Shown here in pieces: positions 3,522-57,851 of a DNA stretch of 64,000 nt (position 1 is its first letter; each line of letters opens with the position of its first letter). The DNA lies in contig JBQTIP010000020.1 in assembly GCA_052388025.1 (NCBI GenBank), positions 14,332 through 78,331 on the forward strand, read 5' to 3'. The notes beneath the pieces are model-generated. The model had not been told where the DNA came from. It did not search any database and worked only from the letters and a program-made list of their open reading frames with translations. The DNA is from Actinomycetota bacterium. GTDB lineage: Bacteria; Actinomycetota; UBA4738; HRBIN12. A program made the translations under genes and the position numbers.

Positions 3522-4857
3522 ATGGCTTCCCTCTCCATCGAGGATCTGTCCCGCAAGGACTACGACACGGTCGTCGTCGCGGCGCCCGATGTCCAAGGGC
3601 GGCTGTTCGGCCGGCGGATCCCGGCGAGGCGGTTCCTCACGGAACCCAGCCAGCACGTCGACATCTGCGTCTGTGCGCTCGTGTGGGACATCGCCGAATA
3701 CCCGGGCTTCAAGATTCCGTTCGCCGGCGCCCACACGGGCTGGCAGGATTTCTTCCTCGCGCCGGACCTCTCCACCCTCCGGCCGTATCCGGGCGTCGAG
3801 GGCACAGCGATCTGCATCGCCGACATCCACGACGAGACGGGCGAGCTGCTGGAGATCGCGCCGCGCACGATGCTCCGGCGGCAGGTCGAGCGCGCGGCCG
3901 GTCTCGGCTACGACGCCGTTATGGCCTCGGAGCTCGAGTTCTACCTGTTCCATGGTGACCTGCGCACGGCCCGCCTGAACCGCTTCCGCGACCTCGAGCC
4001 CACCACGCTCGTCCGCTCCGACTACAGCATCGTCGGGCAGGCCGTCCAGGAGCCGTTCATCCGCCGCGTTCGGAACGAGATGGACGCGGCCGGCATCCCG
4101 ATCTGGGCGTGCCAGGCGGAGTACGGCCTCGGCCAGTGGGAGGTGAACCTCGAGCACGCCCACCCGATCGAGATGGCCGACCGCCAGGTGATCTACAAGT
4201 CCGGAGTCAAGGAGATGGCGCTCCAGTCGGACCTCGCCTGCACGTTCATGGCGCGCCCGAACGACGACATGGGCTCGTCGGGCCACTTCCACGTCTCGCT
4301 CTGGCAGGACGGCGAGCCCGTGTTCGCCGAGCCCGGCGCGCGGCTCTCCGCCGTTGCGAAGGGCTTCCTCGCCGGGCTGATGAAGCACCTCGACGAGACC
4401 GCGCTGTTCTTCGCGCCGTACGTGAACTCCTACAAGCGCCACCTCACAGAGGACTTCGGCGGCGGCATCAACGGGTGGGGGCTTCGACAACCGCACGATC
4501 GCGTTCCGCGTCGTCGGGCACGGCGGCTCGCTGCGCGTCGAGCACCGCTACCCCGGCGCCGACGCGAACCCGTACCTCGCCGCGGCCGCGATCCTGGCCG
4601 CGGGGCTCGACGGCATCGAGCGCTCGCTCGACCCGGGCCCTCCGTTCGTCGGCAACGCCTACGAGGACCCGGAGCTGCCCCGCACGCCCGAGTCGCTGCT
4701 GGATGCGCTTAGCGCCTTCGAGGCATCGGCGTTCGTCGCCGAGACCTTCGGGAAGGAGGTGGTCGAGCACTACGGGGCGCACGCCCGCGGGGAGTGGGCG
4801 GGCTACCTCCGCGCCGTTACCGACTGGGAGGTCCTGCGCGCCTTCGAGCAAGCGTGA
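3522..4857 (+). pseudogene. Glutamine synthetase-like gamma-glutamyl-amine ligase (GlnA3/PuuA/IpuC-like), interrupted by a +1 G insertion
   Basis: ATG 3522 with RBS AGGAGAacgaaac. GS catalytic-domain sequence runs through ...FGGGINGW, then the frame breaks at the G5 run 4476-4480; the protein resumes in the -1 frame (GFDNRTIAFRVVGHGGSLRVEHRYPGADANPYLAAAAILAAGLDGIE...) and ends with TGA at 4855-4857. Confidence 0.7.
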
Positions 4858-4941
4858 CCGAAGGGATCGAACGCCGCCGGTTGCCCGGAAGGTCGTTCCG
4901 GAGCAACATAGCTCCGTCCCGCTCGCTATCGGAGGAACGAC

Positions 4942-6183
4942 GTGCTCACAAGCGAGATCGATCTCGCGAATCCCGACGGCTACGTCGAGCGGATCCCATA
5001 CGAGTGGTTCGACTACCTGCGCCAGGAGCAGCCCGTGTACTGGCACGAGGAGCCGACGCCGAACCACGGTTTCTGGGCGGTCACCCGCTACGACGACCTT
5101 GTCGCGGTCCACATGGACTGGCGGACGTACTCCTCGGAGCTCGGCGCCGTATCGCTCGAGGAGCTCGACGAGGAACAGCTCCAGATCCGCAAGACGATGT
5201 TGGAGACCGATCCGCCCCGGCACCGCGAGATGCGCAACGTCTGCAACAAGAAGCTTTCGGCCCGCGCCGTCGGCAGGTACGAGGAGTTCATCCGCGGCGT
5301 GGCCCGAGACGTGCTCGACCGGGCGCTGCCAATGGGCGAGCTCGACTTCGTCCAGGAGATCTCCAGGGAGCTCCCGATCCGGTTCCTCTGCGCGATCCTC
5401 AAGGTGCCCCAGGAGGACGCCACGATGCTGATCGATTGGGGCGACCAGATGATCGGCAACCAGGACCCGGACTTCTCGAGGGCCGTCGTCGACCAGGTGG
5501 ACACGGAGGAGTTTCGCTACCTGCCGTTCCGCTCGCCTGCGGCCCTCGAGGCTTTCGAGTACGCCGACCGCCAGCGCGACCTCCGGCTTGAGGAGCCGAC
5601 CGACGACGTCATCGCCGCGCTCACGGTCGCCCAGTCCGAGGGGATCCTGACCGAGCACGAGTTCCACACGTACTTCACGCTCTTGATGATCGCGGGCAAC
5701 GAGACGACTCGGCACACGATCTCCCACGGGATCCTCGCGCTGATGGAGCACCCCGATCAGATGGAGCGACTGCGGAACGACACTTCGCTCATGCCGACGG
5801 CCGTCGAGGAGATGCTCCGGTGGGCCACGCCTGTCCTGCACTTCCGGCGCACGGCGTCGTGTGACACCGAGCTCCGCGGAACGAAGATCAGGAAGGGCGA
5901 CAAGATCGTCACCTGGTACATCTCGGCGAACCGCGATGAAGCGGTGTTCCCGGGCCCCTACCGGTTCGATATCTCGCGCTCGCCGAACGAGCACGTTACG
6001 TTCGGCCCCGGCGGCCCGCACTTCTGCCTTGGGGCGCACCTCGCGAGGCTCGAGACCCGGATCCTGTTCGAAGAGCTGCTCCCCAGGCTGAAGTCGATCG
6101 AGCTCACCGGACCGGTCCAGCGGATGCGCTCCAACTTCGTGAACGGCATCAAGCATATGCCCGTCAAGGTTCAGCTAGTCTGA
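4942..6183 (+). CDS. Cytochrome P450 monooxygenase
   Basis: Heme loop FGPGGPHFCLGAHLAR, I-helix AGNETT, EEMLRW (ExxR); 413 aa; GTG start with RBS GGAGGAacgac. Confidence 0.9.
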   Translation: MLTSEIDLANPDGYVERIPYEWFDYLRQEQPVYWHEEPTPNHGFWAVTRYDDLVAVHMDWRTYSSELGAVSLEELDEEQLQIRKTMLETDPPRHREMRNVCNKKLSARAVGRYEEFIRGVARDVLDRALPMGELDFVQEISRELPIRFLCAILKVPQEDATMLIDWGDQMIGNQDPDFSRAVVDQVDTEEFRYLPFRSPAALEAFEYADRQRDLRLEEPTDDVIAALTVAQSEGILTEHEFHTYFTLLMIAGNETTRHTISHGILALMEHPDQMERLRNDTSLMPTAVEEMLRWATPVLHFRRTASCDTELRGTKIRKGDKIVTWYISANRDEAVFPGPYRFDISRSPNEHVTFGPGGPHFCLGAHLARLETRILFEELLPRLKSIELTGPVQRMRSNFVNGIKHMPVKVQLV

Positions 6184-6194
6184 ACCAGACTAGC
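6174..6194. terminator. CTAG-rich palindromic hairpin (gCTAGTCTG-aac-CAGACTAGc) overlapping the P450 stop codon; candidate bidirectional terminator between convergent genes
   Basis: 9-bp perfect stem with a 3-nt loop; TGA of the P450 gene at 6181-6183 lies inside the left arm; related copies at 26977-26997 and 52299-52321. Confidence 0.45.
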
Positions 6195-6220
6195 GTTAGC
6201 TCACCGGAACCCCGGGCCCT

Positions 6221-10066: not shown

Positions 10067-10083
10067 GGCCGCGCTTTCTCCCC

Positions 10084-10962: not shown

Positions 10963-10977
10963 TGGCAGCTCCTTTGC

Positions 10978-13537: not shown

Positions 13538-14969
13538 GTGCGCCTCGTGACCCCCGCCGGGCGCTCGCGCTCCACGGCGCCGTCGAAGCGCGTGATCATC
13601 ATCGGAGCCGGCATCGCGGGGCTGGTCGCGGGCTTCGAGCTGCTCCGCCGGGGACACGAGCCGCTCGTCCTGGAGGCGCAGAACCGGGTGGGCGGCCGCA
13701 TCTACACGCTTCGGGACTTCGCGCCCGGGCTGTACGCGGAGGCCGGGGCAATGCGCATCCCGCGCGCGCACGAGCTCACGCTCGAGTACTGCCGGTTGTT
13801 CGGTCTGGAGCTGCGACCGTTCGTGATGGGCAATCCCAAGGGATTGGTCTACGTCGGCGGCGTCCGCATGAGCGCGGAGGAGGCGGATGCGCGCCCGGAG
13901 CGGCTGCCCTTCGCCCTCGCCGAGCACGAGGCCGGCCGCAACGCCGACCACCTGTGGCAGGAGGCCATCGCCGACATCCGCGAGCTGCTGGAGCGGGACG
14001 GCGACGCGGCCTGGGACGAGATCGTCCGGCGCTACGACCAGTACTCGCTGTACGAGTTCCTGAAGGTCAAGGGGTTCTCCGAGGGCGCCATCGAGTACTA
14101 CGCGGTCATGAACTTCGTCGAGGCCGACATGAACAACGCCGTCGTGGAGGTGCTGCGGGAGGACCTGGGAGGCGCATTCGAGGACATGCAGGAGATCGTC
14201 GGCGGCATGGACCGGCTGCCGAACGCCTTCTTCGAGCGCCTCCAGGGCAACGTCCGGCTGGGCGCCCAGGTCCACGCGATCGACCAGGACGAGCGCTCCG
14301 TCACGGTGCACGTGAAGACGGAGGCCTCGCGCTACTCCGTGACCGGGGAATACGCGATCTGCACGCTTCCCTTCCCCGTGCTCCGCTCCGTCGAGACGAT
14401 CGCGCCGTTCTCACGCGAGAAGCAGCGGGCCATCCGGCAGCTCAACTACCCACGCCTCGACGAAGGTTCTGTTCCAGGTCCGCCACCGGAGGTGGGAGAC
14501 CGAGGACGGGATCTTCGGCGGCGCGTCCGTCACCGACCTGCCGATCCGGCGGATGAACTACCCGACGCCCGACCTCACCAACGAGCGCGGGGTGCTTCTC
14601 GCTTCCTACACCTGGGGACAGGATGCGCTCCAGTGGGGTGCGATGGACGACGAGACGCGCCTCGAGGAGGCGCTCGACGACGTGTCGCGGATCCACCCGT
14701 GGATCCGCGAGGAGTACGAGGTGGGGGCATCGCACGCGTGGTACGGGGACCGCTGGGCTCGGGGAGCCTTCGCGCTCTTCGCCCCGGAGCAGCAGACGGC
14801 ACTCCAGGAAGCGATCGTGAAGCCCGAGGGCCGGATCCACTTCGCGGGCGAGCACTGCTCCCTGTACCACGCCTGGATCCATGGGGCGTTGGAATCGGGG
14901 ATCAGGGCGGCTCGAGAGATCCATGAGACCCCACCGGCCCCGGCCCCGATCCGGGCGGAACGACTCTAG
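13538..14969 (+). pseudogene. Flavin-containing amine oxidase (monoamine/putrescine oxidase or L-amino-acid oxidase family), interrupted by a frameshift
   Basis: FAD dinucleotide motif RVIIIGAGIAGLVAGFELLRRGHEPLVLEAQNRVGGRIYT. The frame is lost after ...AIRQLNY at about 14448-14458 (C-rich run); the protein continues in the +1 frame (STKVLFQVRHRRWETEDGIFGGASVTDLPIRRMNYPTP...HFAGEHCSLYHAWIHGALESG), ending with TAG at 14967-14969. Confidence 0.75.
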
Positions 14970-28865: not shown

Positions 28866-29203
28866 CTCGATTCCTCCTCCCGTTCTTATCCGCAGATTCT
28901 CTACCAGAACGGGTCCGGCCCGTGCGGCTCAAGCATCGCGGCCGGCCTGACGATGCGATGCGTCGTGAAGCTCAACGCACGCCTCCGCGGGTGGGCGTTC
29001 TCTGCGCGCTGGCGGTCCTCGCCGGGGGCCGTCTGCGAGCGGGGGGGCGGGCGCAGCCCGACCTCTCGAACCCGCCCGGCGAAGGCGGCATCGAGCAGGC
29101 ATACGCCCACCTCACGCGGGAGCTGGAGAGCTGGGCCCAGGGTCACCCGGCCGAAGCCGCGATGGCGCTCGCTCAGTACGGGACGAAACGCCTCGGGTCC
29201 GAT

Positions 29204-30481
29204 TCACCTGCGAGGCTCGATCGGCGCCCTCGGACGGCTCTTCTCGAGGTAGGGACGCCCCAGGTACACGAGGCCGAGGACCACGTAGAACGCGGCGAGC
29301 GCAAGGATCCCGCCTCGGAAGTCGAGCGGGAGCATCGCGGGAAGGATCGCTCCGGCCACCCACGCCAGCTGGAAGATGACCTCGTAGCGAACGAACACCC
29401 GACCGTAGGCGCCGCCCGGCGCGTGGCGCTGCATGAGGCTCTGGAACGCGAGGCGGCCGAACTCGGTCGACACTCCGACGATCAGTCCGAAGGCCGCGAG
29501 CACGGGCAGGGAGAAGGCCTGGAACGCGAGCAGCGCCGCGACACCAGCCCCTACCACGCACCCGATCACGACTGCCTCCTCCCGAAGACGCGTCGGAAGT
29601 CGCGGCGCAACGATGTCCCCGAGCAGCCCACCGGCGGTCCCGGCCGCCGCGAGCACGCCGAACCAGTACGTCGGCTGCATGTCGCGCCGAAGCGCGAACG
29701 CGAGCAGGAACAGGAGGAACCCGCTGGCGGCCCGCAACCCTGCGGCCCCAACCGCCGGCTCGGCCAACGCCGGGACGCGACCGCGCCGGCCTACCTGCCC
29801 CTCCACCCCGGGCATCCGTGGATGCGGGAGACGTATGTTCATCAGCGTGCAGAGGCCGTAGATCGCCGCCGCCGCGTAAAGGACCGTCGTGGCCCCGCCG
29901 AGCTTCAGAAGCGCGATGCCCGGCCCCGCCACGAGGATCACCCCCGCGACGGCGAGCCGCCCCAGCCGAGCGTTCGAGCGCACGAGCCCCTCCTCCGGGC
30001 CCGAGTACGCCATCGTGAGCCCGTTCTTGGTGATCGCGTGCACGCGAGACAGCACGAGCAGCAAGAACGCGGCCGGAAAGAGCAGGAGCGTCGAGAACCG
30101 GGGCGCCGCGTATATCGTCACGGCGGCGCGGCCGGCCGCCGCCGCAACCGAGATGGCGCGCCGGGGTCCGGCGCGGTCGAGCAGAGGGACGAGGAACGGC
30201 CCGGCCACCGCGAGCGGCGCCATCGTGAGCCCCAGGTAGATCGCCACCTTCGACGCCGCCTGATCGACCGGGAGCGAGAAGAACACCGAGTCGGCGAGGG
30301 CGATCGCGACCAGCGCGTCGCCGGCCACGCTGCTCATATGGACGAGGCCGTACGTGTCGAGCGGCTCGTCGGAGGACCACATCCGGCGGACCGGCTGGAC
30401 GATGGCCTCGAGGAGCCCGACGAACCCCAGCAGGATGAGCTGCCACCAGGGGTACCGCCGGCGCCGGTCGTCCACCCTCAC
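29204..30481 (-). CDS. MFS transporter
   Basis: 425 aa, 12 TM pattern, hydrophobic glycine/alanine-rich helices. Confidence 0.7.
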   Translation of the reverse strand: MRVDDRRRRYPWWQLILLGFVGLLEAIVQPVRRMWSSDEPLDTYGLVHMSSVAGDALVAIALADSVFFSLPVDQAASKVAIYLGLTMAPLAVAGPFLVPLLDRAGPRRAISVAAAAGRAAVTIYAAPRFSTLLLFPAAFLLLVLSRVHAITKNGLTMAYSGPEEGLVRSNARLGRLAVAGVILVAGPGIALLKLGGATTVLYAAAAIYGLCTLMNIRLPHPRMPGVEGQVGRRGRVPALAEPAVGAAGLRAASGFLLFLLAFALRRDMQPTYWFGVLAAAGTAGGLLGDIVAPRLPTRLREEAVVIGCVVGAGVAALLAFQAFSLPVLAAFGLIVGVSTEFGRLAFQSLMQRHAPGGAYGRVFVRYEVIFQLAWVAGAILPAMLPLDFRGGILALAAFYVVLGLVYLGRPYLEKSRPRAPIEPRR

Positions 30482-34746: not shown

Positions 34747-34756
34747 GGCCGCAAGT

Positions 34757-35017
34757 CTACCGGCGGTAGAAGTCGCGCCGGTGCTTGATGCGACTGACCA
34801 GGACCCTTTGGCCCGCGTCGTCGATGCGAAAGATGATCCGGTAATCCCCCACCCGCTTTCGATACGCGTTCTCGCCCTCGAGCTTCTGGGACTGACTCCC
34901 TGGATCCTCTTGGAGCGCAAGCACGGCCGCTCTCACACTGGAACGATGCTCAGGTGGCACGCGCCGGTAGTCGCGTTCGCCTGCGGGGGTGGTTAGGACT
35001 CGTAGGCCAAGCGTCAC
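34757..35017 (-). CDS. Type II toxin, RelE/ParE family
   Basis: C-terminal YRKRVGDYRIIFRIDDAGQRVLVSRIKHRRDFY matches the RelE/StbE consensus; GTG start at 35017 placed 5 nt after the antitoxin stop. Confidence 0.75.
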   Translation of the reverse strand: MTLGLRVLTTPAGERDYRRVPPEHRSSVRAAVLALQEDPGSQSQKLEGENAYRKRVGDYRIIFRIDDAGQRVLVSRIKHRRDFYRR

Positions 35018-35022
35018 TCGAG

Positions 35023-35247
35023 CTATTCGAATGGGACAGCGCCCTCCCACGTCCCCTCGAGCGCGTCGAGTGAATCCTCCAAGAACTCCAGGCGATCGAT
35101 CAGCTGGTTATAGCGGTCGAGCTCCATGAGAACGGCCTTCCCCTCGCCGCGCTGGGTCACGATGATCTCACCCACCTCCGACAGGTCGTCCATGACCGAT
35201 GCAAGCTCGTCGCGGAGTTGCGCGACGCCGATCACCCTGAGCGCCAC
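35023..35247 (-). CDS. Type II antitoxin, Phd/YefM family
   Basis: 74 aa; ...QLRDELASVMDDLSEVGEIIVTQRGEGKAVLMELDRYNQLIDRLE matches the YefM/Phd fold; strong RBS AGGAGGtacaGTG. Confidence 0.75.
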   Translation of the reverse strand: MALRVIGVAQLRDELASVMDDLSEVGEIIVTQRGEGKAVLMELDRYNQLIDRLEFLEDSLDALEGTWEGAVPFE

Positions 35248-35360
35248 TGTACCTCCTAACGTACGTTCTGGGGTACTGTTAACGGTACCAGATCGGAGCC
35301 GATTGGGACACGCGCATGCCGCCTCGACCGCGTCGCCCGGGTCGACCGCCGGTGGTTCCA

Positions 35361-38068
<2,708 letters not shown>

Positions 38069-38083: not shown

Positions 38084-38203
38084 CTACGAGCCGCCGACGA
38101 GAGCATCGAGCTCCGCCCGGTTCTCGTTGTGGGTCCAGGCGTGCCGGATCCAGAACGCTTCGTGGCCCCGCAGGACCATCTCCACGTTGGGATGCTCCGC
38201 CAT
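38084..38203 (-). CDS. 39-aa mini-ORF, a deletion remnant of an NTF2-like paralog (N-terminus MAEHPNVE... fused to a C-terminus ...ELDALVGGS)
   Basis: N-terminal 17 aa and C-terminal about 20 aa align to the two ends of the 38800-39195 paralog, with about 90 internal residues missing; retains a strong SD AAGGAGAGGAGAG 8 nt upstream. Confidence 0.35.
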   Translation of the reverse strand: MAEHPNVEMVLRGHEAFWIRHAWTHNENRAELDALVGGS

Positions 38204-38381
38204 CGGCGCTCTCTCCTCTCCTTCGCGGGAGGAATCCTGGCCCGCGAGGCTCGATGATAACCGGGCCCTGTGACACACCCCTTGATCGACGACCACCGAT
38301 GTTCGGGAGCCCTTGTCGGTTGCGCGCCGCCGCCGCCTGCGACTACGCTCCGTGCGGCACACGACCCGGGGGGAGGCCCCG

Positions 38382-38774
38382 ATGGCACATCCGAACGAGG
38401 ACCGGTTCCGCGCGGGCTACGCCGCGTTCTCCACCGGTGACATGGACGCGCTCCGCAACGAGTACTTCACGGAGGACATCGTCTGGCACGCGCCGGGACG
38501 CAACACGCTTTCCGGCGACTTCAAGGGCGTGGACGAGGTGCTCGCCACCTTCGCGAAGACCTTCGAGCTCTCCGGAGGCACCTTCAGCGTGGAGATCCAC
38601 GACTGCCTGGCCAACGACGAGCACGGCGTCGTGCTTGGGGTGGCACGTGGCCGGCGCGAGGGGAAGACCCTCGAGGACAAGTACGCCCACGTCGTGCACT
38701 TCCGTGACGGGAGGGTATCCGAGTCCTGGGTCCACTCCGGGGACCAGTACGCGGACGACGAGTTCTGGTCCTAG
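38382..38774 (+). CDS. NTF2-like / SnoaL-like (ketosteroid-isomerase fold) protein
   Basis: 130 aa from ATG 38382 (RBS GGGAGG); N-terminus MAHPNEDRFRAGYAAFSTGDMDAL...VWHAPG is typical of SnoaL-like polyketide-cyclase / limonene-epoxide-hydrolase folds. Confidence 0.6.
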   Translation: MAHPNEDRFRAGYAAFSTGDMDALRNEYFTEDIVWHAPGRNTLSGDFKGVDEVLATFAKTFELSGGTFSVEIHDCLANDEHGVVLGVARGRREGKTLEDKYAHVVHFRDGRVSESWVHSGDQYADDEFWS

Positions 38775-38799: not shown

Positions 38800-39195
38800 T
38801 CAGCCGCCGACGATCGCGTCGAACGCGGCCTGGTCCTGGTTGAAGGCCCAGACCTCGCTCAGCTTGCCGTCCCGCACGTGATAGACCTGCACCTGGTGGC
38901 CGTCGTACGTCCGGCCGTCGGGACCCGCGAGGTGGAACTCCACGAGCGCCGCTACGTGATCGTCGCTGCCGATGACGTCGTGGATGTCGAATGAGATCTG
39001 GATCCCGGCGTCGTGTAGCTTCCCCATCCGGGCCATCGTCTCGGCCTTGCCCTGGAAGTCCCCGCTGAACGGATTGCTCCCCGGCGCGTGCCAGACGACG
39101 TCGTCGGCGACGGTTGCCGCGAAGGCCTCCACGTCGCCCTTGATGAACGCCTCGAGGGCTCCACGCGCGGCTTCGACGTTAGGGTGCTGGACCAT
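38800..39195 (-). CDS. NTF2-like / SnoaL-like protein (convergent paralog)
   Basis: 131 aa; MVQHPNVEAARGALEAFIKGDVEAF...VVWHAPGSNPFSGDFQG is parallel to the 38382 gene (FSTGDMDAL / VWHAPGRNTLSGDFKG). Confidence 0.6.
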   Translation of the reverse strand: MVQHPNVEAARGALEAFIKGDVEAFAATVADDVVWHAPGSNPFSGDFQGKAETMARMGKLHDAGIQISFDIHDVIGSDDHVAALVEFHLAGPDGRTYDGHQVQVYHVRDGKLSEVWAFNQDQAAFDAIVGG

Positions 39196-41008: not shown

Positions 41009-44000
41009 TCACGAGACCCGGGCCGCGCCGACCCCCGTCCGTTCCAGCCGCTCGAGCCAGGGCCTTGCCCGCAATCGCTCGAAGATCTCGCGGGCCTCAT
41101 CGAGCAACGACTTGGCTTCATCGCTACGGCCCTGAGCGACGAGCCACTCGCCGTGCTCGAGAAGCGTCACGGCCATCCAGAACGGGACGGCCATCTCCCG
41201 GAACATGCCGGTAGCGTTCTTGAAGCCCGGCTCGACCCGATCGGATTCGCCGCGCGACGCCGCGAGGCGAGAGCGAAATCGGCGCGAGTGCGCGTCCAGA
41301 TACTGGGGGCGTCGTCCCTGCGGAAGCCCATCGACCACGCCGAGAAGTCGCTCGACCGTGCCTGTGTCTTCGACCGCGAAGGCGGCCTCCACGGCTTCGA
41401 CGAACCCATCTTTGACGGCCTCGTGCCCGATTCCCAGATCGTCCCATGCTTCGAAGGCGGCCGACGCCAGCTCCAGGGCCTCTGCGGCTCTGCCCTCCGC
41501 TCGGGCCAGGGCGGCGTCCCCGACGGCGGAGCTGGCACGCTCCTGGACGTCCGCGGACTTGTCGACCTCGCCGAAGAGCTCGTGGGCTCTCCTCGCTTGC
41601 CCGATCTCGCCTCGATGGATGTGGATAAGGGGCACAGCGGCGAGGAGGCAGATGAAGGGGAGCCGAGCTTGCTGACCGGCCTCCTGCGGGAGCCCGGAGG
41701 CCATGTCCAGCGCCTCGTCCCATTCGCCGAGCGCCACCATCGGATATATCTGACCCAGGAACTGCCACTCCTGCTGGCGGTGGCCGACCCTCCGAGCGAG
41801 GGTAAGGCCCTTCACCAGGTACTCGCGCGCCTCCTGGAACACGTCGGACTGGATCCCGGCGTCGACGAGGTTGAAATAGGCACGGAGGGCCGCCGAGGGG
41901 ACCTCGTTCTCCAGAGCCATGTCGAGGGCCTTCTGCAACAGCGCGGACGCTTCACGCTTTCGGCCCCTCACGAGCAGCGTGATGCTCTTCGTGTTCAGCG
42001 CTTGCGAGAGCACCTCCGGGAGCCCCAGCGCCTCGGCGATGTCGAGCGCGGTCTCGATCCGCTCGGCGGCCGCTTCCGCGTCGCCGGAGAAGTACAGCAG
42101 CCGGCCCACCTCCGCAGCGAGCGTCGCCAGGTCTTCGTCCGGCTCCTCGCCGGAGAGCACCTTGAAGGAGCCATCCATCCGCTCGACGGCCTCGGCGAAG
42201 CGGCCCTGTCCCACATGACCTCCGCGAGCCGCGCCGAGACGCGAGCCGCCGGATGGGTCTGCCCGTGCGCCTCGAACGCAGCGATCGACCGCTCGAAACG
42301 CTCGGTCGCCACCTCGCCCCTCCCTCCCTTCCACGCCATCATGCCCGCGCGCTCGAGCAGCCCGGCTTCTTCCAGGGGCTCCTCCGCGAGCTCCGCCGCC
42401 TGCTCGAAGTGGCGCTGCGCCTCCGCGCTGGCGGCCAGCGACTCCGCGCGCTCCCCGGCCCTGATCAGCATCTCCTTCGCCTTGACCCTGATCGCATCCG
42501 CGTCGTCCGCGTCGGGGGCTGTCCGATACGCGTCGAGGTAATGCGCCGCGACCACCTCGACGATCTCCTCCTCCTCGGCGCCCAAGCCGGATTCGAGGAA
42601 CGTCGCCGCGGCGAGGTGGCGCCCCCTACGCTCCTTCTTCGACATCGTGTCGTAGGCGACCTTCTTCACCAGGTCCTGGAGGAAGCCGTACTGCCCTCGC
42701 TCGGGCGACATCGGGTCGGCGGAGAGCGAGAGCACCTCCTTCCGGACCAGGGACGACAGAAGCGCCTCCAGCTCGTCCTCGGCGAAGCCCGTCATCGCCG
42801 AGAGCCCCCGGATCGTGAACGTGCGGCCCAGGACGGAAGCGTCCTGAAGCATGCGGCGCTCCTCCGCCGCGAGGCCGTCGAGGCGCGCGGCGATCAACGC
42901 CTGGAGCGTCTCGGGCACCTCCAGCGTCTCGATCGGTCCCTCGGTTCGGTACGCGTTCCCCTCGCGGACGATGAGCCCCCGGTCGAGCAACATCCGCACC
43001 GTCTCGACCGCGTAGAACGGGACGCCCTCGGCCCGATCGAGAATCCGCGCCCGGAGGTCGTCGGGTAGGCCGGGGACCGGTCCCGTCAGGAGCGTCTCCA
43101 TCGCCTCCGGCGGCAGCGGCTCGAGGAACTGGGACGTGAACGCCCTCTTGCCGGCTCCCCAGGTCGGACGTCGCTCCATCAGCTCGGGCCGGGCGAGCGT
43201 GAGCACGAAGATCGGGTGGTCGCGGGACCAGTCCAGCACGTATTCGACGAAGTCCAGCAACGCGCTGTCCGCCCAATGGACGTCCTCGAAGACCAGCACC
43301 ACCGGCAGGGTCTCCGACATGCGCTCGAAGAGGATCCGCCAGGCCGAGAACAGGTTCTCCTGGTCGCCGGGGCCGCGGTCTTCGAGGCCGAGCAGCTGGG
43401 CGAGGCGCGGCTCGACGAACCGGCGCTCGGCGGGATCCGGTACGTGCTCGTCGATGGCGGCCCGGAGCTTCTCGGAGGCGGACCGCGCCTCCTCGTCCTC
43501 GACGATCCCGGCGCGCATGCGCACCATCTCGGCCAGCGCCCAGAAGGCGACGCCCTCGCCATAGGCCAGGCAGCGGCCGTGGTGCCATCACGCGTCGACG
43601 GCCAAACCGTCGATGTACTTCTCGAATTCCCAGGCCAGGCGGGACTTCCCAATCCCCCCGATCCCCATGACCGAGACGATGTGCGCCTTGCGCTCCTCAG
43701 CGCAGGCGTGGAAGAGCTCCTTGATCAGACGTAGCTCCCTGTCGCGCCCGACGAACGGGGGCTCGATGCCGGCCGACTTCACCGCGCCGCGGCGCAACCC
43801 GACGACGCGGACGGCTCGCCAAAGCGGTATCGGCTCCGCTTTCCCCTTCAGCTCGTGTGCGCCGGCCTCCTCGTAGACGATCGCGGCCTCGGAGGCCCGC
43901 CTAGTGGCCTCGCCTACGTAAACCGCTCCTGGCGGCGCGACGGACTGGGCCCTTGAAGCCGTGTTGACGAGGTTACCGGCCACCATGCCCTGGCCCTCGG

Positions 44001-44547
44001 CGCCGATCGTCACGGCGGCCTCGCCGGTCAGCACACCGGCGCGGGCCCGAAGGTCGGGCGCTCCCACCTCCTGCCCGAGGGCCGCCACGGCGGCGGTGAG
44101 GTCGAGGGCGGCGCGGACCGCCCGCTCGGGGTCGTCCTCGTTGGCGGTGGGCGCGCCCCATACCGCCATGACCGCGTCACCGATGAACTTCTCGATCGTG
44201 CCTCCGTAGCGCACGATCAGCTGGCGGCAGGTGTCGAAGTACCGCGTGAGGAGCTCGCGGACCTCCTCGGCGTCCCTGTCCTCCGACAACGTGGTGAATC
44301 CCACGAGATCGGCGAACAGGACCGAGACCAGGCGGCGCTCGGCGACTGGCGCCTCGCGCGCGGCTGCGGTCGGGGGCGGTGAGGCCGACGCGACTGCCGA
44401 CAGCGCACCGCCGCATTCGCCGCAGAACTTCAGGCCGGGAGCATTGGCCGTCCCGCAGCTTGGACAGGCGACCGCGAGCGGCTTCCCGCACTCTCCGCAG
44501 AACTTCCGGCCCGGTTCGTTCTCCGTGCCGCACGCCGTGCAGCGCAT
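41009..44547 (-). pseudogene. Large multidomain signalling protein, disrupted: double zinc-ribbon, class III adenylate/guanylate cyclase, AAA/STAND NTPase and TPR domains
   Basis: From ATG 44547: CxxC zinc ribbons (CTACGTENEPGRKFCGECG, CPSCGTANAPGLKFCGECG), cyclase core (VLFADLVGFT...FIGDAVMAVWGAP), P-loop GIGGIGKSRLA, then TPR-rich helical region. An in-frame TGA at 43588-43590 (...YIDGLAVDA*WHHGRCLAYGEG...) and a frameshift near 42194-42212 split it into three ORFs. Confidence 0.7.
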
Positions 44548-48204: not shown

Positions 48205-48452
48205 GCCGCCGACGGGTTCCCCACGATCCGAACGTCGTCACCGTCTACCTCGGTCAATTCACGCGTGAAGGCGCGAACCGGATCGCCGGCGAGCTGGAGA
48301 AGGCCGGGATCGTCTGGTGGTACAAGGAGCCGGGGCTCATCAGCCAGATCTGGGAGTACGGCGTTCGCCTCTTCGTCGACAGGAATCGCCTGGCGGACGC
48401 CAAGTCGATCGTCGACCGGTTGCGGACGAAGAGCGAGAGCCCCGGCGGCTGA
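48201..48452 (+). CDS. Small hypothetical protein (DUF2007-like)
   Basis: 83 aa; ATG overlaps the pabBC stop (ATGA); sequence VVTVYLGQFTREGANRIAGELEKAGIVWWYK resembles small putative signal-transduction DUF2007 proteins. Confidence 0.4.
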   Translation: MSRRRVPHDPNVVTVYLGQFTREGANRIAGELEKAGIVWWYKEPGLISQIWEYGVRLFVDRNRLADAKSIVDRLRTKSESPGG

Positions 48453-48613
48453 GGCTCGGGCGCGGAGCTCCCCTGAGACGGTTTCGTTCCGGCGACACGC
48501 CCCAGGTCGCGCACGAACCGCCTCTCCCCGAGACCGCGATCCGGGGGGAGCGGTCTCTCCCAGAGTGCTCGGCCTCACGGCGCACAGCCGTTACCCGAGA
48601 GGCCCGGAAAGCC

Positions 48614-48641
48614 GGAAGCCCTCCCGGCCGGGAGGGCTTCC
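48614..48641. terminator. Perfect 28-bp GC-rich palindrome (GGAAGCCCTCCCGG|CCGGGAGGGCTTCC), candidate bidirectional terminator between convergent genes
   Basis: Read directly from the sequence; a second 8-bp-stem hairpin (GAGACCGC...GCGGTCTC) lies at about 48532-48564. Confidence 0.5.
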
Positions 48642-48668
48642 TGTGGGGCCTGGGTCGATCGCTCGGCG

Positions 48669-48872
48669 CTAGGCCGCTTCCTTGCGCCTGCGCTTTCCTC
48701 GCGAGATGAACTCGTGCACGGGTTCGTGCTGCCAGCAGAACTGCCAGCGGTTGTATATCGACAGCTTCGTCTGGCATCCCTCGGCCGCGCAGACGCGGCC
48801 CTCCGGATAGGTGCGGTTCGCTCGCGGGAGCTCGCGGATCCGCGCCCCCCGGTAGACGCTGTCTGATGGCAT
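48669..48872 (-). CDS. Small basic Cys-rich (zinc-ribbon-like) hypothetical protein
   Basis: 67 aa; CAAEGCQTKLSIYNRWQFCWQHE (C-x4-C ... C-x2-H) and a lysine/arginine-rich C-terminus; family not identified. Confidence 0.4.
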   Translation of the reverse strand: MPSDSVYRGARIRELPRANRTYPEGRVCAAEGCQTKLSIYNRWQFCWQHEPVHEFISRGKRRRKEAA

Positions 48873-49002
48873 CGTTCTGTCCCTCGCTTCGGGCTACGGG
48901 CGGGTCCCGCGCTGAAGATTCCTCATGTATTCGAACGATGAGGGGCTACGGTTCGTTCCCGAGTGGAGATGCGGAACTAGCGGAAAACCCGGGGTGACCG
49001 CC

Positions 49003-49491
49003 TCAGTCGGTCTCCAGGCGGCTCATCAGCGCCTCCGTCGAGGACGTGAGCTGCACGACCCGGGGCGTGAAACCGAGGCCCTCCCAGAAGCTGAGCGCAC
49101 CCTCGTTGGGCGCGAACGTCTTCAGCTCGATCCAGCCGACACCGCGCTCCGTCGCGAAGCGACCGGCCTCCTGGAGCAAGGCCCGCCCGACTCCGCGCCC
49201 GCGGTACCCGGCCCGCACTACGACGCCGGAGATCTCCAGCGCTCGTTCGTCGGAGAAGCGGGAGGGCGTGTGGATCTCGCCGTAGGCCATGCCCACGACC
49301 TCGCCCTCGTGCTCGGAGACCAGGACCACGGCATCCGGCGTCTCCATGGCCTCCCGGTACTTCGTGCCGACCTCGTCGTAGAAGCCGGGCCGCGGGGTGA
49401 AGACCCGCCAGTCCCGCTGCATCCGGTCGAGCTCCTGGAACAGCGCCACCAGGGCTGGGAGGTCCTCTGGGGTCGCCTGCCTGACCTTCAC
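49003..49491 (-). CDS. GNAT-family N-acetyltransferase
   Basis: Acetyl-CoA motif A RGYRGRGVGRALL; 162 aa. Confidence 0.8.
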   Translation of the reverse strand: MKVRQATPEDLPALVALFQELDRMQRDWRVFTPRPGFYDEVGTKYREAMETPDAVVLVSEHEGEVVGMAYGEIHTPSRFSDERALEISGVVVRAGYRGRGVGRALLQEAGRFATERGVGWIELKTFAPNEGALSFWEGLGFTPRVVQLTSSTEALMSRLETD

Positions 49492-51257: not shown

Positions 51258-51700
51258 ATGGAACCAAGCCTCGGGGACGTCGAGCGCGCGACGAAGGCCC
51301 TTCGGGCCCGCCCGGAATCGTGGCGCCTGGTCCCGGCCCACAGCTCGCTGGCGACGCGCCGGTGGATCGTCGCCCTCCAGGAGGATCGGACGGCCTTCGT
51401 CAAGATCGCCGCCCACGACGATTCGGCGTCGTGGCTCCGGGACGAGCACATGATGTACGCTCGCTTGAAGGCAGACTTCATGCCCAGGCTTCTGGGCTGG
51501 CACGATGACGGCGATAGCCGGGGGACGCGCTCCTCCACTTCGACGTCCGAAGCGACAGCCTCTGCTTCCGGGACGGGCGGGCCCCGTTGATCGACTGGAA
51601 CTGGGCCTGCGTCGGGAACCCGGTCCCGGACGTCGCCGCTTGGCTCTCGAGCCTCCACGCGGAGGACGGCCCGCGCCCGATGAGATCCTGCCGGATGGTC
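51258..51700 (+). pseudogene. Phosphotransferase (APH/CHK kinase-like) family gene fragment, broken by a -1 deletion in a G run; true 3-prime end uncertain
   Basis: N-lobe with the conserved Lys (FVKIAA) and Glu (WLRDEHMMY); frame is lost at the G5 run 51520-51524; the next frame carries the catalytic-loop-like LLHFDVRSDSLCF and the APH signature LIDWNWACVGNPVPDVAAWL; no convincing C-terminal lobe follows. Confidence 0.45.
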
Positions 51701-51832
51701 CCCGGGACTGCCGGCGCCTCACGTTCGGCCGCTTCAGCTGGCGCAGGCAAGGAAGGCACTCCCTTGGGCGGCCACGGCACTGGGGCTTCCCCTTCTCGGC
51801 TGAGCGAGTTGCAGTTGCAAGCCGCTGCTACA

Positions 51833-52285: not shown

Positions 52286-52298
52286 TCCGGAGTTTAGA

Positions 52299-52321
52299 CA
52301 CTAGTCTGTCTCAGACTAGTG
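52299..52321. terminator. CTAG palindromic hairpin (CACTAGTCTG-tct-CAGACTAGTG), best-preserved copy of the repeat family, preceded by an ACTAGTCC box on the Fur-family stop codon
   Basis: 10-bp perfect stem with a 3-nt loop between convergent genes; the upstream box aACTAGTCCggagttt (52280-52297) contains the TAG stop of the Fur-family gene. Confidence 0.5.
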
Positions 52322-52335
52322 TAATGGGCGCCCTC

Positions 52336-53361
52336 TCAGACCGGAACCGCCCAGACGCCGTGGGGTCCCGCCCCCACTGTGATCTGGTCCACCCGCCGAC
52401 GAGTCCGCTCGTTGTACACGATCAGCCGGCCGTGGTCATGATCGGCCACGACGGCCCACCGTCCGTCCGCCGTAATCGCGACGTGGTGCGGGGCTCCGGG
52501 GAAGCGAAGGGAGGCGACGACTCGCAGCGTGCGGACGCGGACCACGAAGACGCGCGCCGCCCCGTGGTCGGTGATCCAGGCGAACCGCCCGTCCGGCGTG
52601 AACGCCAGATGGTGAGCCTCGACCCCTAGCTCGATCGACCGCAGCAGCTCACCCTTGGGGGTGGAGAAGACGTGGAGCTCCCCCGCCCAGTCGGTGACCC
52701 ACAGGTTCCCGTCGGGGGCGAACAGGAGGTCGTGCGGTCGCTCGCCCGTCGAGACGTAGCGAACGCGGGCCCGCCGGACGAGGTTCACGACCGCGAGGTC
52801 ATCCCGCCCCTCGAGCGAGACCCACGCCCGCCGGCCCGTGGGATCCACGGCCACGTCGTGAGGGTCAGTAACAAGCGGGATCGTGCGGCGCAGCCTCCCG
52901 TCGAAGCGCACCAGCTGGACACGCGCGGAGCCCTGGTTGGCGACGACGACGAGGTTCCCCGCGATCTTGACATCGTGGGGAGCGCCGCCGAGCTCCACGA
53001 ACTCGACATCTCCATTCCGAACGATCGCGATCCGGTCCGAGGCCCAGAGCGCGACGGCCACCGAGCCGTACCGCGCCACCGTGATGTTGTGGGGGCCGCC
53101 GGGCGTCTCGATTCGTTCGATCACCCGCCCGGCAGCCACGTCCACCTCCGCGACCCGCTCCGCGCCCTCCACAGCGACCCACACCAAGGCGGATAGATCG
53201 GGCCCGGCCTCTGGTGCGGAGGACGGGAGCGCGGACGTCCCGGTCGAGTCCAGCCGGACGGGCTGCGATCCATTCGGCTCCGGCGCGGCCATGCCCGTGG
53301 AGGTGGCGGACGCCACGGCCAGGGCCAGGGCGACCGCGGCGAGCAGTCGGCATGGGCTCAC
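52336..53361 (-). CDS. Secreted YVTN-type beta-propeller repeat protein
   Basis: Signal peptide MSPCRLLAAVALALAVASA, then repeated 40-residue blocks (GxxPHxVAV.. / PDG..W.TD); last gene of the znu operon; start is GTG 53361 (or 53379). Confidence 0.65.
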   Translation of the reverse strand: MSPCRLLAAVALALAVASATSTGMAAPEPNGSQPVRLDSTGTSALPSSAPEAGPDLSALVWVAVEGAERVAEVDVAAGRVIERIETPGGPHNITVARYGSVAVALWASDRIAIVRNGDVEFVELGGAPHDVKIAGNLVVVANQGSARVQLVRFDGRLRRTIPLVTDPHDVAVDPTGRRAWVSLEGRDDLAVVNLVRRARVRYVSTGERPHDLLFAPDGNLWVTDWAGELHVFSTPKGELLRSIELGVEAHHLAFTPDGRFAWITDHGAARVFVVRVRTLRVVASLRFPGAPHHVAITADGRWAVVADHDHGRLIVYNERTRRRVDQITVGAGPHGVWAVPV

Positions 53362-53422
53362 ACCGAAGCTGACTTCCACCGGGACGGCCGGGTTCCCGCG
53401 GGTTGTTGGCTCGCCCGCCCGA

Positions 53423-54274
53423 TCAGCCCACGTGGGCGTCGGCCGCGGCCGCCGGCAGTCGCCGGTGGCGTGTCCCCGATATGACGAACGCGACCAGGAA
53501 CACCGCGGCGGCGGCCAGCACCACCGACGCTCCCGAGGACCAATCCAGGTAGTAGGAGAGGTACACGCCGAAGAACCCGCATAACGTGCCGACGACGACG
53601 GAGATCCAGAGCATGCGCTTGAAGCTGTCGGTGAGAAGGCGGGCGATCACCGGCGGGATCACCAGGACCGCCGCGATCATCGTGACCCCCATGATGTTCA
53701 TGGTCGCGGTGATAGTCGCCGCCAGGGTGATGGCCAGCCAGACGTCGGCGGCCGCGGTGCTCACCCCCGAGACCTCGGCGACCTCGGGATCGAAGGTCGA
53801 GAACAGGAGCTGGCGGTAGCGGAAGAATACGACGCCGGCGGCGAAGACCATCACCGCAGCTACGACATACACGTCGCCGATAGTCACGCCCAGGACGTTC
53901 CCGAACAGAGCCGCCTCGAAGTTCCTCGTGAAGCTCCCGATGACCGAGATGATCGCGATCCCGACGGCGAAGCTCGCGGACGTGACCACGCCGATCGCGG
54001 CGTCGGCCCCGATGCTCCGCCGGCGGGCAACCCGGTTGATGAGGAGCGCGGACACGAGCCCCCATGCTCCGGCGCCCAGGTAGAAGTTGATGCTGAGCGC
54101 GTAGCTCGCGACGGCGCCGCCGAAGATCGCGTGCGAGAGGCCGTGGCCGATATAGCTCATGCCTCGCAGCACGACGTATACGCCGACGAGCCCGCAGAGG
54201 GCGCCGCCGAGGACCGACACCACGAGGGCGTGCCGGAAGAACCCGTACTGGAACGGCTCAAGCAGGGTGTCCAT
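53423..54274 (-). CDS. znuB: Metal (Zn/Mn) ABC transporter permease
   Basis: ABC-3 family, 8-9 TM segments, 283 aa. Confidence 0.85.
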   Translation of the reverse strand: MDTLLEPFQYGFFRHALVVSVLGGALCGLVGVYVVLRGMSYIGHGLSHAIFGGAVASYALSINFYLGAGAWGLVSALLINRVARRRSIGADAAIGVVTSASFAVGIAIISVIGSFTRNFEAALFGNVLGVTIGDVYVVAAVMVFAAGVVFFRYRQLLFSTFDPEVAEVSGVSTAAADVWLAITLAATITATMNIMGVTMIAAVLVIPPVIARLLTDSFKRMLWISVVVGTLCGFFGVYLSYYLDWSSGASVVLAAAAVFLVAFVISGTRHRRLPAAAADAHVG

Positions 54275-55061
54275 GGTGTCCCTCCCTCAGGGGCACGACG
54301 GTGGCGCCCGCTTCCTCGACCTCCGGGTAGTGCTCCACGACCACGGGCATGCCGCCGTGGGACAGCACCTCAAGCGGCGCGCCGTAGGTGCGCTCGAGCA
54401 CCTCGGGCGTGATCACGTCGCGGGGCGCGCCCGTTGCGATGACCTCCTTGTTCAGGCAGACGAGCCTCGGCAGGTGCGCGGCGATCCCGTTCAGGTCGTG
54501 CGTCGTCAGCACGATCGCCAGGCCGTCGTGGTGCAGCTCGTGGATGAGGTGCATCACGTCGTGGCGGGTGCGCACGTCGACGCCGCTGGTCGGCTCGTCG
54601 AGCAGAAGGAGCCCGGGCCGGCGGAGCAGCGCCCGCGCGACGAAGACGCGCTGCTGCTGGCCTCCCGACAGCTCGCGGATGTGCCGCCCGGAGAGCTCCG
54701 CCAACCCCAGGCGCTCCAGCATCTCCTCGGCCTCGCGGACGTCCGCCTTCGAGGACCACGGGACCACCCGGCCGTCGATCCTGGCCATCAGGACGGCCTC
54801 GCGGACAGTGACCGGGAAGTACCAGTTCACGGTCTCGACCTGGGGCACGTAGCCGACCGGCGCCGAGCGATCCCGCACGATCTTCCCGGCGATCGGCTCG
54901 ACGGATCCGGCGATCGCCCGAAGCAGCGTCGTCTTCCCGCTGCCGCTCGGGCCGACGATGCCGACGAACTCGCCCTCGCGGATCGACAGGTCGACGTTGA
55001 CCAGGACCGGTTCGCGCCCGTACCGGCACGTGACCTTCTCGAAGCGGACCAGCTCGTTCAA
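54258..55061 (-). CDS. znuC: Metal ABC transporter ATP-binding protein
   Basis: Walker A GPSGSGKTT, signature LSGGQQQRVFVARAL, Walker B LLLDEPTSGVD. Confidence 0.85.
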   Translation of the reverse strand: MNELVRFEKVTCRYGREPVLVNVDLSIREGEFVGIVGPSGSGKTTLLRAIAGSVEPIAGKIVRDRSAPVGYVPQVETVNWYFPVTVREAVLMARIDGRVVPWSSKADVREAEEMLERLGLAELSGRHIRELSGGQQQRVFVARALLRRPGLLLLDEPTSGVDVRTRHDVMHLIHELHHDGLAIVLTTHDLNGIAAHLPRLVCLNKEVIATGAPRDVITPEVLERTYGAPLEVLSHGGMPVVVEHYPEVEEAGATVVPLREGHHGHPA

Positions 55062-56056
55062 TAGCGGTAGTTCGCCGTGTCGCCGGCGACGAGGTTGCTC
55101 GTATCGATGCCGTCGAAGGCCGACGTGTCCCCGCCCAGGGCGCCCATGAAGGTCCGGAAGTCGAACACCATCAGCCCGAAGTAGCTGTGCTCGGGATCGC
55201 CGTTCTCACCGGGCAGGTCGTCGTCGCGAAGGTCGTCGAGATAGGCGGCCCCGGTCTCGGCAGCGATCTGCTCGAGCACGGGGCTCGGGAACACCTCGGA
55301 GCCGAAGATCGCCGGGATGCCCTCGTCCCTGATCTGATCGATCAGGCCCGCGACCTCCTGGGGGGTCGGGTCGGCGAAGTCGGAGGGCTGGATCGCGCCG
55401 ATGATCTCCCAGCCGTATTCGCGGGCGAAGTACGGGAAGGAGTCGTGGTAAGTGAGGAGCTTCCGATTCTCGGGAGGCACGGTCGCCGTCGCCTCGCGGA
55501 CCACGGCATCGAGCTCGTCCAGCCGGGCCGCCAGCCGGTCGTAGTTCTCCCCGTAGTAGCTCGCGTTTTCGGGATCCACCGCCGACAGCTCGTCCCTGAT
55601 GATCTCCGCATAGCGCTTGGCGTGCAGTGGGTTGGTCCATAGGTGCGGGTTCGGGTCCCCGCCGGACTCGGGGAAGCTGAAGTCGTAGATGTACTGCTCC
55701 GGTGTGATCGTCCGGGCGCCGAGCTCGACGATGGGAACGCCGGAGCGCACGTTCGCCTCGGCGAGCTCCCGGGTCGGCTCCTCCAGGTGCAGCCCGTTCA
55801 CGAAGACGATGTCGGCTTCCGCCATCACGGCGGCATCGGACGGCGCGGGTTCGAAGGTGTGGCTGTTGGTCCCCTCCGGTACGATCCCGGTGACCTGCAC
55901 CCTCTCGCCGCCCACGTTCTGGACAAGGTTCGTGATCGGCGAGACGGTCGTGACCACTTGCAGGAGGCCGGACGGGTCACCCCCGCCCGCCCCCTCACTA
56001 GAGCACGCACCAGCTACCAGGGCGGCCAGAGCCGTCGCTGCGATCGCGTTCCGCAC
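55058..56056 (-). CDS. znuA: Metal ABC transporter substrate-binding lipoprotein (ZnuA/TroA family)
   Basis: Lipobox LVAGAC after the signal peptide; cluster-9 SBP fold with His-rich metal site candidates; 332 aa. Confidence 0.85.
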   Translation of the reverse strand: MRNAIAATALAALVAGACSSEGAGGGDPSGLLQVVTTVSPITNLVQNVGGERVQVTGIVPEGTNSHTFEPAPSDAAVMAEADIVFVNGLHLEEPTRELAEANVRSGVPIVELGARTITPEQYIYDFSFPESGGDPNPHLWTNPLHAKRYAEIIRDELSAVDPENASYYGENYDRLAARLDELDAVVREATATVPPENRKLLTYHDSFPYFAREYGWEIIGAIQPSDFADPTPQEVAGLIDQIRDEGIPAIFGSEVFPSPVLEQIAAETGAAYLDDLRDDDLPGENGDPEHSYFGLMVFDFRTFMGALGGDTSAFDGIDTSNLVAGDTANYRY

Positions 56057-56161
56057 AGAGCCTCCCGGCGACGCCAGTCGCCTGAATGAGCAGATACTCT
56101 AATGGCTACCTGCAGTGTAGTGCAAATAGCTGGGCTCGTAGAAAGCGACTCGGGCGACCCG

Positions 56162-57851
56162 TCAGTTGTGGGAGGGCTCCTCGGCTCGGATCCCCATCTC
56201 CTCGGCGGCGATCTCCTCGAGGCGGCGCCCCTGCGTCTCGATTCCGCGCGCGGCAAGCACAGCGGCGGCCACCGAGAGCGGGATCGCCGAGAAGAGCGCC
56301 GGCCCGGTGATCCCTGGCCACAGGCCTAGGATCGCCGCGGCTGCGGGCGGCCCGAGTATCCCGCCCAGCTTGCTGCTGCCGGCGGCGAGGCCGCTTCCCG
56401 TGCCGCGGAGCTCCGTTGGATAGACCTCCGCCGTGTAGGGCGAGAGCATGGAGATCACGCCACCGCTCGTCACCAGCAGCAGCATCACGAGGATCGTGAG
56501 GATGAAGCCACGGCTGGGGTCGGCCGGACGGAGCGTCGCGAAGCCCACCAGTGTGATCGCCGTGGCCACCGCATAGATGATCATGCTCTTCTTGCTGCTC
56601 CACATCCCGTACAGGTAGGAGACCAGGACGGTACCTGGCACGGCCAGGAGCGAGGAGGTGAACAGGAGCCGGCTGGCGCTCTGGAACCTCAAGCCCTGGT
56701 CCTCGAGGATCGTCGGCAGGAACGTAAGGAACCCCCAGTTCACCAGCCCCCAGCCCAGCCCGTACAGACCCACGCAGATCGTCTGTGGGAGGTACGGCTG
56801 GCGGAAGACCCGGCTGAGGCCGGCGAAGTGCGAGTGCCGCACGGCGGCCGGAGCCACCGATTGCTCCGCGTCACCGGGCTCATCCCGCTCGATGGTCACG
56901 CCGTAGCGGGCCATCACATTGCCGGCCTCCTCCACCCTCCCCCGCTCGAGCAGGAACCGCGGCGACTCCGGGATCCATCGGTTCAGGAGCAGCAAAGAGG
57001 GCGCCGGTCGGGAGGTTCATAAACCACAGGATGCGCCAGCTGAAGTGCGGCACGAGCCACGCGGCGATGGCGCTCGCCGCGAGGTAGCCGCCAACCGTGC
57101 CCATGCCCCCGTGCAGCACCACGAGCCAGCCGCGCTTCTTGGCGGGGATGGACTCGGCCATCAGAGCGTAGACGATGGGGAGCATGCCGCCCGCCGCCAG
57201 GCCCATGAAGAAGCACATGAACAGGTTGAACCTGAAGCTCGGCATGAAGCCGCAGATCGCCGTCCCCATGAACATCAACGAGGCGAGCAGGATCGCCGCT
57301 CGTCGCCCCAGTCGATCCGACCAGATGCCCCACAGGAAGGAGCCGATCGTAGTACCGGTCAAGGCGCTGAGGGGCAAGAGCGAGACCGCGGCGGTGGACA
57401 GGCCGTACTCCGCCTTCATCCCCGGCACGGAGAACCCGAGGCTGGCCGGCTTCATCACGTCTACGATCAGCGCGACGCCAAGGACGAACAGGAGACCGTA
57501 GTGCGCGCCGGTGAGGGGCGCGTCGTCCATCGCCTTCAGGCGATAGCCGTGGGCCGTCTTCGCGCCCCCAAGCTGATCCTTTCGCGGGAAGAGGCCGAAG
57601 GCTGCAAGCGTGATCCCCACGACGATCAGTCCAGTCCCGAACTGCATAGGACCGGAGAACGACATCCCTTCCAAGCGGAACTGGACCCCGCTCTGATCGA
57701 TGAAGTCCGGCAGGTGCAGCAGCACGCCGGCCATGATGGCGAATGTCCCGAGCCAGAAGGCCGACGGGTGGTGGAAGGCGATTCCCACATGGGCCCGCTT
57801 CCGGCGATCCCCGTTCGTCGAGGGATTAGCTGCGTCGATGCGGCTCTTCAT
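56162..57851 (-). pseudogene. MFS transporter (sugar-porter-like, PESPRF motif), interrupted by a +1 insertion in a T run
   Basis: The two overlapping track ORFs join as ...RILWFMNLPTGAL|LLLLNRWIPESPRFLLERG...; the frame breaks at the homopolymer at 56994-56996 (TTT on the coding strand). Confidence 0.7.

Follow-up and report, generated by a model that had tools for sequence, protein, structure and literature searches.

How do several genes in one stretch of an uncultured soil actinobacterium come to be split across reading frames: by mutation, or by errors in the consensus from which the stretch is read? The stretch in question, hereafter the window, comprises 64,000 nt of Actinomycetota bacterium assembly GCA_052388025.1 (contig JBQTIP010000020.1, positions 14,332 to 78,331), and it contains five split genes and one small remnant. 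An earlier note on this DNA put the breaks down to uncorrected long-read errors at homopolymers, with reductive decay of the genome, or at least of this accessory region, as the alternative. We favor, guardedly, a different answer, namely that all of the lesions are genuine inactivating mutations of differing ages in dispensable genes of this uncultured soil lineage. Our overall verdict is ordinary pseudogenization, perhaps with a small number of consensus errors among the lesions, which is the kind of thing already known. The affected features are as follows.

3522..4857, + strand: glutamine-synthetase-family (GS-like) gene, interrupted by an additional G at 4477-4481 (G4 to G5), otherwise full length
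13547..14969, + strand: flavin amine oxidase gene, interrupted by an additional C at 14449-14451 (C2 to C3; TAC CAC to TACCCAC)
38084-38203, - strand: probable SnoaL-like remnant, a 39-aa open reading frame (ORF) with ~100 internal codons lost and both termini kept
41009..44547, - strand: Zn-ribbon / class III cyclase / AAA_16 / TPR regulator gene, with a TGA and a 1-nt deletion; 1179 aa when repaired
51258..51803, + strand: APH-family kinase relic, with ~93 codons lost at 51516-51520, inside GATAGCCGGGGGACGCG (51513-51529)
56162..57851, - strand: MFS transporter gene, split by an extra T in coding-strand TTT (plus-strand AAA at 56994-56996; T2 to T3)

The window has a G+C content of ~69-70%, and ORFs are therefore present in every frame. 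Coding frames were mapped with a hidden Markov model of G+C at third codon positions (GC3), and each fragment was then checked against Pfam. The resulting gene map has 57 genes and is 93% coding sequence. We compared it with the deposited annotation (proteins MGQ0668228-258, locus tags ACT4PO_) of the 82,075-bp metagenome-assembled genome (MAG) contig, with a JGI metagenome contig (L093) that has gene order in common with the window, and with two related MAGs (L001 and L002).

The kinase relic, the probable SnoaL relic, and the cyclase regulator

To judge from comparison with its homologs, the kinase is certainly an old, genuine pseudogene, because consensus errors do not yield multi-codon deletions together with drift at conserved residues. 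The homologs are 293-296 aa long, and residues 89-181 (~279 nt) are lost at the "G5" site where the earlier note had placed a single missing G; an added G would indeed rejoin the frames there, but the homologs show that ~93 codons are absent. By tblastn, residues 4-88 match at 51264-51515 and residues 182-234 at 51521-51679; the matches to residues 230-256 and 260-290 fall in another and in a third frame, respectively. The gene has also undergone a 1-nt deletion within 51672-51684 (CCG GAT to CCGAT, near 51679), and a further ~18-22 codons have been lost from its interior within 51693-51712 (near 51700-51710). Because the drifted kinase carries this 1-nt deletion, real small indels do occur in the window.

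Constraint was assessed by counting unique deviations at family-conserved columns, with each homolog serving as a control, a test that has little power for recent events. In the retained parts of the kinase, five of the 52 columns conserved at >=95% are changed, compared with 0-3 in 116 homologs, and the catalytic-loop Asn is lost (HFDVRSDN to HFDVRSDS). The L093 ortholog, which was also aligned at the DNA level, is intact (296 aa) and lies in the same gene order, upstream of FUR. The kinase stub (window 51258-51590) is deposited as MGQ0668251.1, a 110-aa hypothetical protein (ACT4PO_01015).

The 39-aa ORF is probably a deletion relic of a SnoaL gene. It reads MAEHPNVEMVLRGHEAF followed by WIRHAWTHNENRAELDALVGGS and a stop, and retains 17 N-terminal and ~20 C-terminal residues. 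There are colinear matches to both ends of SnoaL_2 proteins, the window's own as well as that of L093; we call the remnant only probable because the individual matches are weak. The matches stop no more than a residue or two from the VGG-stop terminus of the window SnoaL protein, and the remnant lies directly upstream of an AbpE-like gene, which is the site of an intact SnoaL gene in L093. A candidate nonsense lesion in the AbpE-like gene at 38084 was rejected, as this stop belongs to the separate 39-aa SnoaL relic.

Two intact SnoaL paralogs stand beside the remnant, at 38379-38774 (+ strand) and 38800-39195 (- strand). The kinase and SnoaL relics have undergone a similar mid-gene loss (at 51513-51529 and 38130-38160, respectively), in each case ~280-300 nt with both ends kept.

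The regulator is very probably a genuine pseudogene. It lies in three pieces, each with Pfam matches, and when repaired it is colinear with homologs of 1170-1180 aa at identities of up to 72%. The frameshift results from the loss of a G from AGGGGC (AGG GGC) in a conserved MWDRGR motif (plus-strand CCC at 42204-42206; G4 to G3), while the in-frame TGA at 43588-43590 occupies a position that is Trp in most homologs (VDAWWH in the closest), i.e., a TGG to TGA transition. Nonsense and frameshift in one gene are natural if the gene is dead and an unlikely coincidence if they are errors. A stop would result from 2.7% of random substitutions in the window's broken genes, and five lesions placed at random would include two in any one gene with a probability of 0.21; the observed lesions number three in the kinase, two in the regulator, and one each in the GS-like, amine oxidase, and MFS genes.

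The L093 ortholog of the regulator is intact (1171 aa) and adjoins mnmA in the same gene order. The N-terminal 773 residues are 77% identical between the two, with corresponding values of 75% for GatA and 77% for GatC. The repaired protein has two unique deviations at ~160 invariant columns (homolog mean 0.5, maximum 4). Pieces of the regulator are deposited separately as MGQ0668242.1 (319-aa cyclase) and MGQ0668241.1 (507-aa "ATP-binding protein").

Within window positions 43576-43590 (- strand), two G to A changes relative to the family consensus occur within 10 nt: TGG to TGA and CGC to CAC (WWHRGRC to stop-WHHGRC). A third unique change in the regulator, D to N in the cyclase motif, is G to A as well if the ancestral codon was GAC.

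Three genes each split by one inserted base

The GS-like gene matches the Pfam Gln-synt_C profile over positions 2-219 and then over 218-341 in the next frame. Its DNA reads AAC GGG TGG GGG CTT CGA C at the lesion, and removing one G restores W-G-F-D-N-R-T. The repaired protein aligns to the GS-like proteins PDB 11zs_A/5dm3 over residues 14-443 with no gap at the lesion, and none of the 54 columns conserved at >=85% across 82 diverse family members deviates. The gene is intact in L001. The L002 ortholog (L002 10001-11348, MFD00392.bin.2.136) has a 1-nt insertion of its own (GACGC-TGCGG versus GACACTTGCGG). In NCBIfam, the protein scores below the cut-off of every GS equivalog, and there is no equivalog-level name for the GS-like, amine oxidase, or MFS proteins.

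The amine oxidase gene, which may begin with the GTG at 13547 or with that at 13592, matches the Pfam Amino_oxidase profile over positions 1-283 and then 280-442, in two frames. At the lesion site the window reads AACTACCCACGCC, while the commonest homolog DNA is AACTACCACGCC (22 loci), with AACTACCACGCG in nine more. All 80 metagenome homolog loci that we compared match in tblastn as one segment without a change of frame; 73 of them are full-length and stop-free, and the rest run into a contig end. The corrected protein has one deviation in 125 columns conserved at >=97%, which is at background level (homolog mean 0.89).

The two pieces of the MFS gene match Sugar_tr over 38-182 and 184-449 and MFS_1 over 13-165 and 179-347 (Pfam). 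The lesion reads CTC TTT GCT where CTC TTG CTG is expected. Once corrected, the protein gives one continuous match to plasmid-borne MFS genes (over 24-482) and to TIGR00895 (over 109-507), so that the gene is probably intact apart from the extra T. The N-terminal fragment is deposited as MGQ0668258.1, a 323-aa "MFS transporter."

For these three genes, the earlier note's reading of the indels stands up to comparison: the GGGGG at 4477-4481 is G4 in both L001 and L002 (76-77% nucleotide identity), the extra C is confirmed by homolog DNA, and the T3 run of the MFS gene is an expanded T2. The frameshift and in-frame TGA that it described in the regulator are likewise borne out, by homolog alignment at both sites. 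The constraint test was informative for the kinase only and gave no signal for the regulator, amine oxidase, or GS-like genes. As these three are pristine apart from their lesions, either the breaks happened very recently or they are artifacts.

Homopolymer runs and the origin of the lesions

The true run lengths at the four single-base indels are 4 for the GS-like gene (+G), 2 for the amine oxidase (+C), 2 for the MFS gene (+T), and 4 for the regulator (-G). The window contains 112 runs of 5 nt, 20 of 6, 7 of 7, and 1 of 8. All 28 runs of >=6 nt are unbroken; 19 of these belong to intact genes, e.g., C7 in gatB, G6 in gatC, and C6 in ligA. Under random placement, an insertion would create a run of >=3 nt with p = 0.20 and a run of >=5 nt with p = 0.018, and a deletion would fall inside a run of >=4 nt with p = 0.043, giving a joint p of ~3e-5 for all four indels in mononucleotide runs. 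The link between indels and runs is real, and it is predicted by slippage and by sequencing errors alike. Thus, the association with homopolymers that the earlier note described holds beyond chance for four indels, but the runs are short and the kinase is a different case.

The note had also argued that true pseudogenes in a small window rarely all break at homopolymers. This is contradicted by what is known of slippage, which favors runs in real frameshifts too: in high-GC actinobacteria, real frameshifts concentrate in homopolymer tracts, and in Mycobacterium tuberculosis, frameshifts in a neutral tract were estimated to arise 100 times as fast as substitutions (PMC10334774). Errors in long-read consensus are described as a homopolymer problem that grows with run length, and R10.4 consensus resolves runs of up to ~10 nt (PMC9262707).

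A and T runs of >=4 nt are nearly absent from the window (four each in 64 kb), compared with 28 G/C runs of 6-8 nt. Scans of the 64-kb window for tRNA genes and Rfam families, intended to find structured RNAs that would reveal indel errors, found none.

The two related MAGs offer a comparison. L001 and L002 switch frame frequently within 21 kb and are separated from each other by numerous 1-nt gaps, which suggests that both assemblies carry a high indel load, and the window is much cleaner, with far fewer frame switches per kb. From their Microflora Danica (MFD) isolate names, we take L001 and L002 to be nanopore-derived.

Seen against known systems, the window resembles long-read homopolymer error in having single-base indels in runs that split otherwise intact genes, at a few per 100 kb and in a MAG. 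It differs in that the affected runs are short (2-4 nt), runs of 6-8 nt are correct, and no housekeeping gene is affected, and also in having a nonsense substitution, multi-codon deletions, and drift. With ordinary bacterial pseudogenes, whose decay has a deletional bias and of which the tract indels of M. tuberculosis (PMC10334774) are an example, it shares frameshifts in runs, G to A nonsense, internal deletions, restriction to dispensable genes, intact orthologs in a syntenic relative, and at least one gene with relaxed constraint; the difference is that biological breakage of the three single-hit genes is here read from consensus sequence.

If the lesions are all genuine, as we favor, the kinase and probably the SnoaL remnant would be old relics that have lost internal segments, with the kinase also drifted at conserved residues. 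The regulator, GS-like, amine oxidase, and MFS genes would be young pseudogenes, hit so recently that there has been no time for other changes. The single-base indels (+1, +1, +1, -1) would likely have arisen when replication slipped in short runs of G, C, or T, and an additional G to A transition would have made the stop codon in the regulator. This reading is supported by intact orthologs in L093 (kinase and regulator) and in L001 (GS-like). Several observations weigh against it. The GS-like and amine oxidase genes are flawless but for one inserted base, as consensus errors would look, and constraint on the regulator is not clearly relaxed. In each of the three single-hit genes the lesion is a +1 that duplicates the neighboring base, whereas the proven relics carry deletions. 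With ~9% of its genes broken, the window is high for a free-living bacterium. No core gene is broken, but five random lesions would miss the core with P = 0.42, so this is weak evidence. Finally, the lesions are read from the deposited consensus, and no independent assembly of the same population was found in the collections searched.

These observations give some room to a mixed origin, which we hold as a tentative alternative: the kinase, SnoaL relic, and regulator would be true pseudogenes, while the insertions in the GS-like, amine oxidase, and MFS genes would be consensus errors in functional genes. The absence of change in the conserved columns of the GS-like protein, the background level of deviation in the amine oxidase, and the colinearity of the corrected MFS protein with its homologs are all as this account would have it, as are the three duplicated bases, so unlike the deletions of the proven relics, and the separate insertion in the GS ortholog of L002. 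Low-coverage long-read bins (e.g., PacBio, nanopore) do require polishing to remove such indels (PMC9262707). The account is harder to square with affected runs of only 2-4 nt when the consensus is correct at every one of the 28 runs of 6-8 nt, or with three hits that all fall in accessory catabolic or transport genes, and the real pseudogenes in the window raise the prior that these three are real as well. In addition, the size of the contig and the position of ACT4PO_01015 as approximately gene 203 may suggest that the largest contigs of this assembly are ~100 kb or less, as is common for short-read assemblies. For these three genes, we lean modestly toward recent slippage over consensus errors, such that they would be biologically broken rather than mis-assembled.

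We consider it improbable that all of the single-base lesions, including the frameshift and TGA of the regulator, are uncorrected long-read errors and that only the large kinase deletion is biological. The concentration of four indels in mononucleotide runs would be expected, and imperfectly polished long-read MAGs can have a density like the one seen here, ~1 lesion per 13-16 kb (PMC9262707). However, nonsense in an already frameshifted gene would then be a coincidence of ~0.03 × 0.06 per substitution error, and the runs of >=6 nt should not all have escaped. The kinase, with its extra 1-nt deletion and its drift, shows that small indels in the window can be real, and the window is much cleaner than the two MAGs that we take to be nanopore-derived. 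The long-read explanation of the earlier note may therefore hold for the GS-like, amine oxidase, and MFS genes, but it fails for the kinase, the regulator, and the intact long runs. Least probable by far is that the indels are functional, as phase-variable contingency tracts or as programmed ribosomal frameshift sites that still give full-length protein. Placement in mononucleotide runs and the otherwise perfect conservation of the GS-like and amine oxidase genes would agree with such a role. Phase-variable contingency tracts are typically >=7 nt, vary in length, and often lie near the 5' end or promoter; the tracts here are far shorter (3-5 nt), mid-gene, and spread over five unrelated genes. 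Homologs have neither run expansion nor frameshift at the lesion sites, and no slippery heptamer or stimulatory signal was seen on reading the junctions, although no systematic search was made.

A core neighborhood and the extent of gene loss

The earlier note had taken the window for an accessory region. Its genes include gatCAB, ligA, mnmA, etfBA, and serA, all without lesion, as well as a methylmalonyl-CoA mutase-family gene with meaB. Given these core genes and the synteny with L093, we reject that description: the window is core chromosome into which accessory clusters have been inserted. Clusters of GatA and GatB at 90% identity are singletons among ~15 billion proteins, with no close relative there, and the exact-protein clusters of the MFS fragment and ECH are singletons too.

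From alignment with L093, accessory insertions interrupt an otherwise conserved core gene order. A block at 52336-57851 comprising a beta-propeller gene, a znuABC-like transporter, and the MFS gene is absent from L093, as are etfBA and the methyltransferase gene beside the regulator. An intact toxin-antitoxin pair (ParE and Phd/YefM), low in GC3, is inserted between ligA and gatC (34757-35240, - strand), where L093 carries folD and a DUF4328 gene.

Reductive decay, the other explanation that had been offered, is too strong a term for a window that is 93% coding and in which no Pfam scan found a transposase or insertion sequence (IS) domain. GC3 is near 0.9 even in the broken genes. Four "non-coding" stretches (61390-62445, 34748-35365, 48438-49005, and 28871-29239) were considered as possible sites of hidden relics and rejected as evidence of decay; they hold a Zn-ribbon protein, the intact Phd-ParE pair, a conserved 69-aa ORF, or nothing recognizable. 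Mycobacterium leprae is an example of reductive genome evolution with massive gene decay. The window is like it in having several pseudogenes in one neighborhood, including relics with internal deletions, and unlike it in being 93% coding, with ~9-10% of genes affected and with the toxin-antitoxin pair and accessory clusters intact.

A stronger form of the reading that we favor is that all lesions are real and that this deep-branching lineage, with ~10% of the genes in this neighborhood inactivated, is early in an ongoing burst of gene loss; we think this unlikely. If true, it would present a free-living high-GC bacterium in which fresh single-hit pseudogenes stand beside deletion relics in a core neighborhood.

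For annotation, two or more pieces of the regulator are deposited as ordinary separate proteins, as are the N-terminal MFS fragment and the stub of the kinase; these entries are best regarded as parts of pseudogenes or of mis-assembled genes rather than as new short families. As to method, a break at a homopolymer cannot by itself tell sequencing error from mutation; more can be learned from the length of the run, how many lesions a gene carries, whether invariant residues have drifted, and whether syntenic orthologs are intact. If all of the lesions are real, the genome would have a somewhat raised pseudogene load, which would matter modestly for understanding how this uncultured soil actinobacterium lives.

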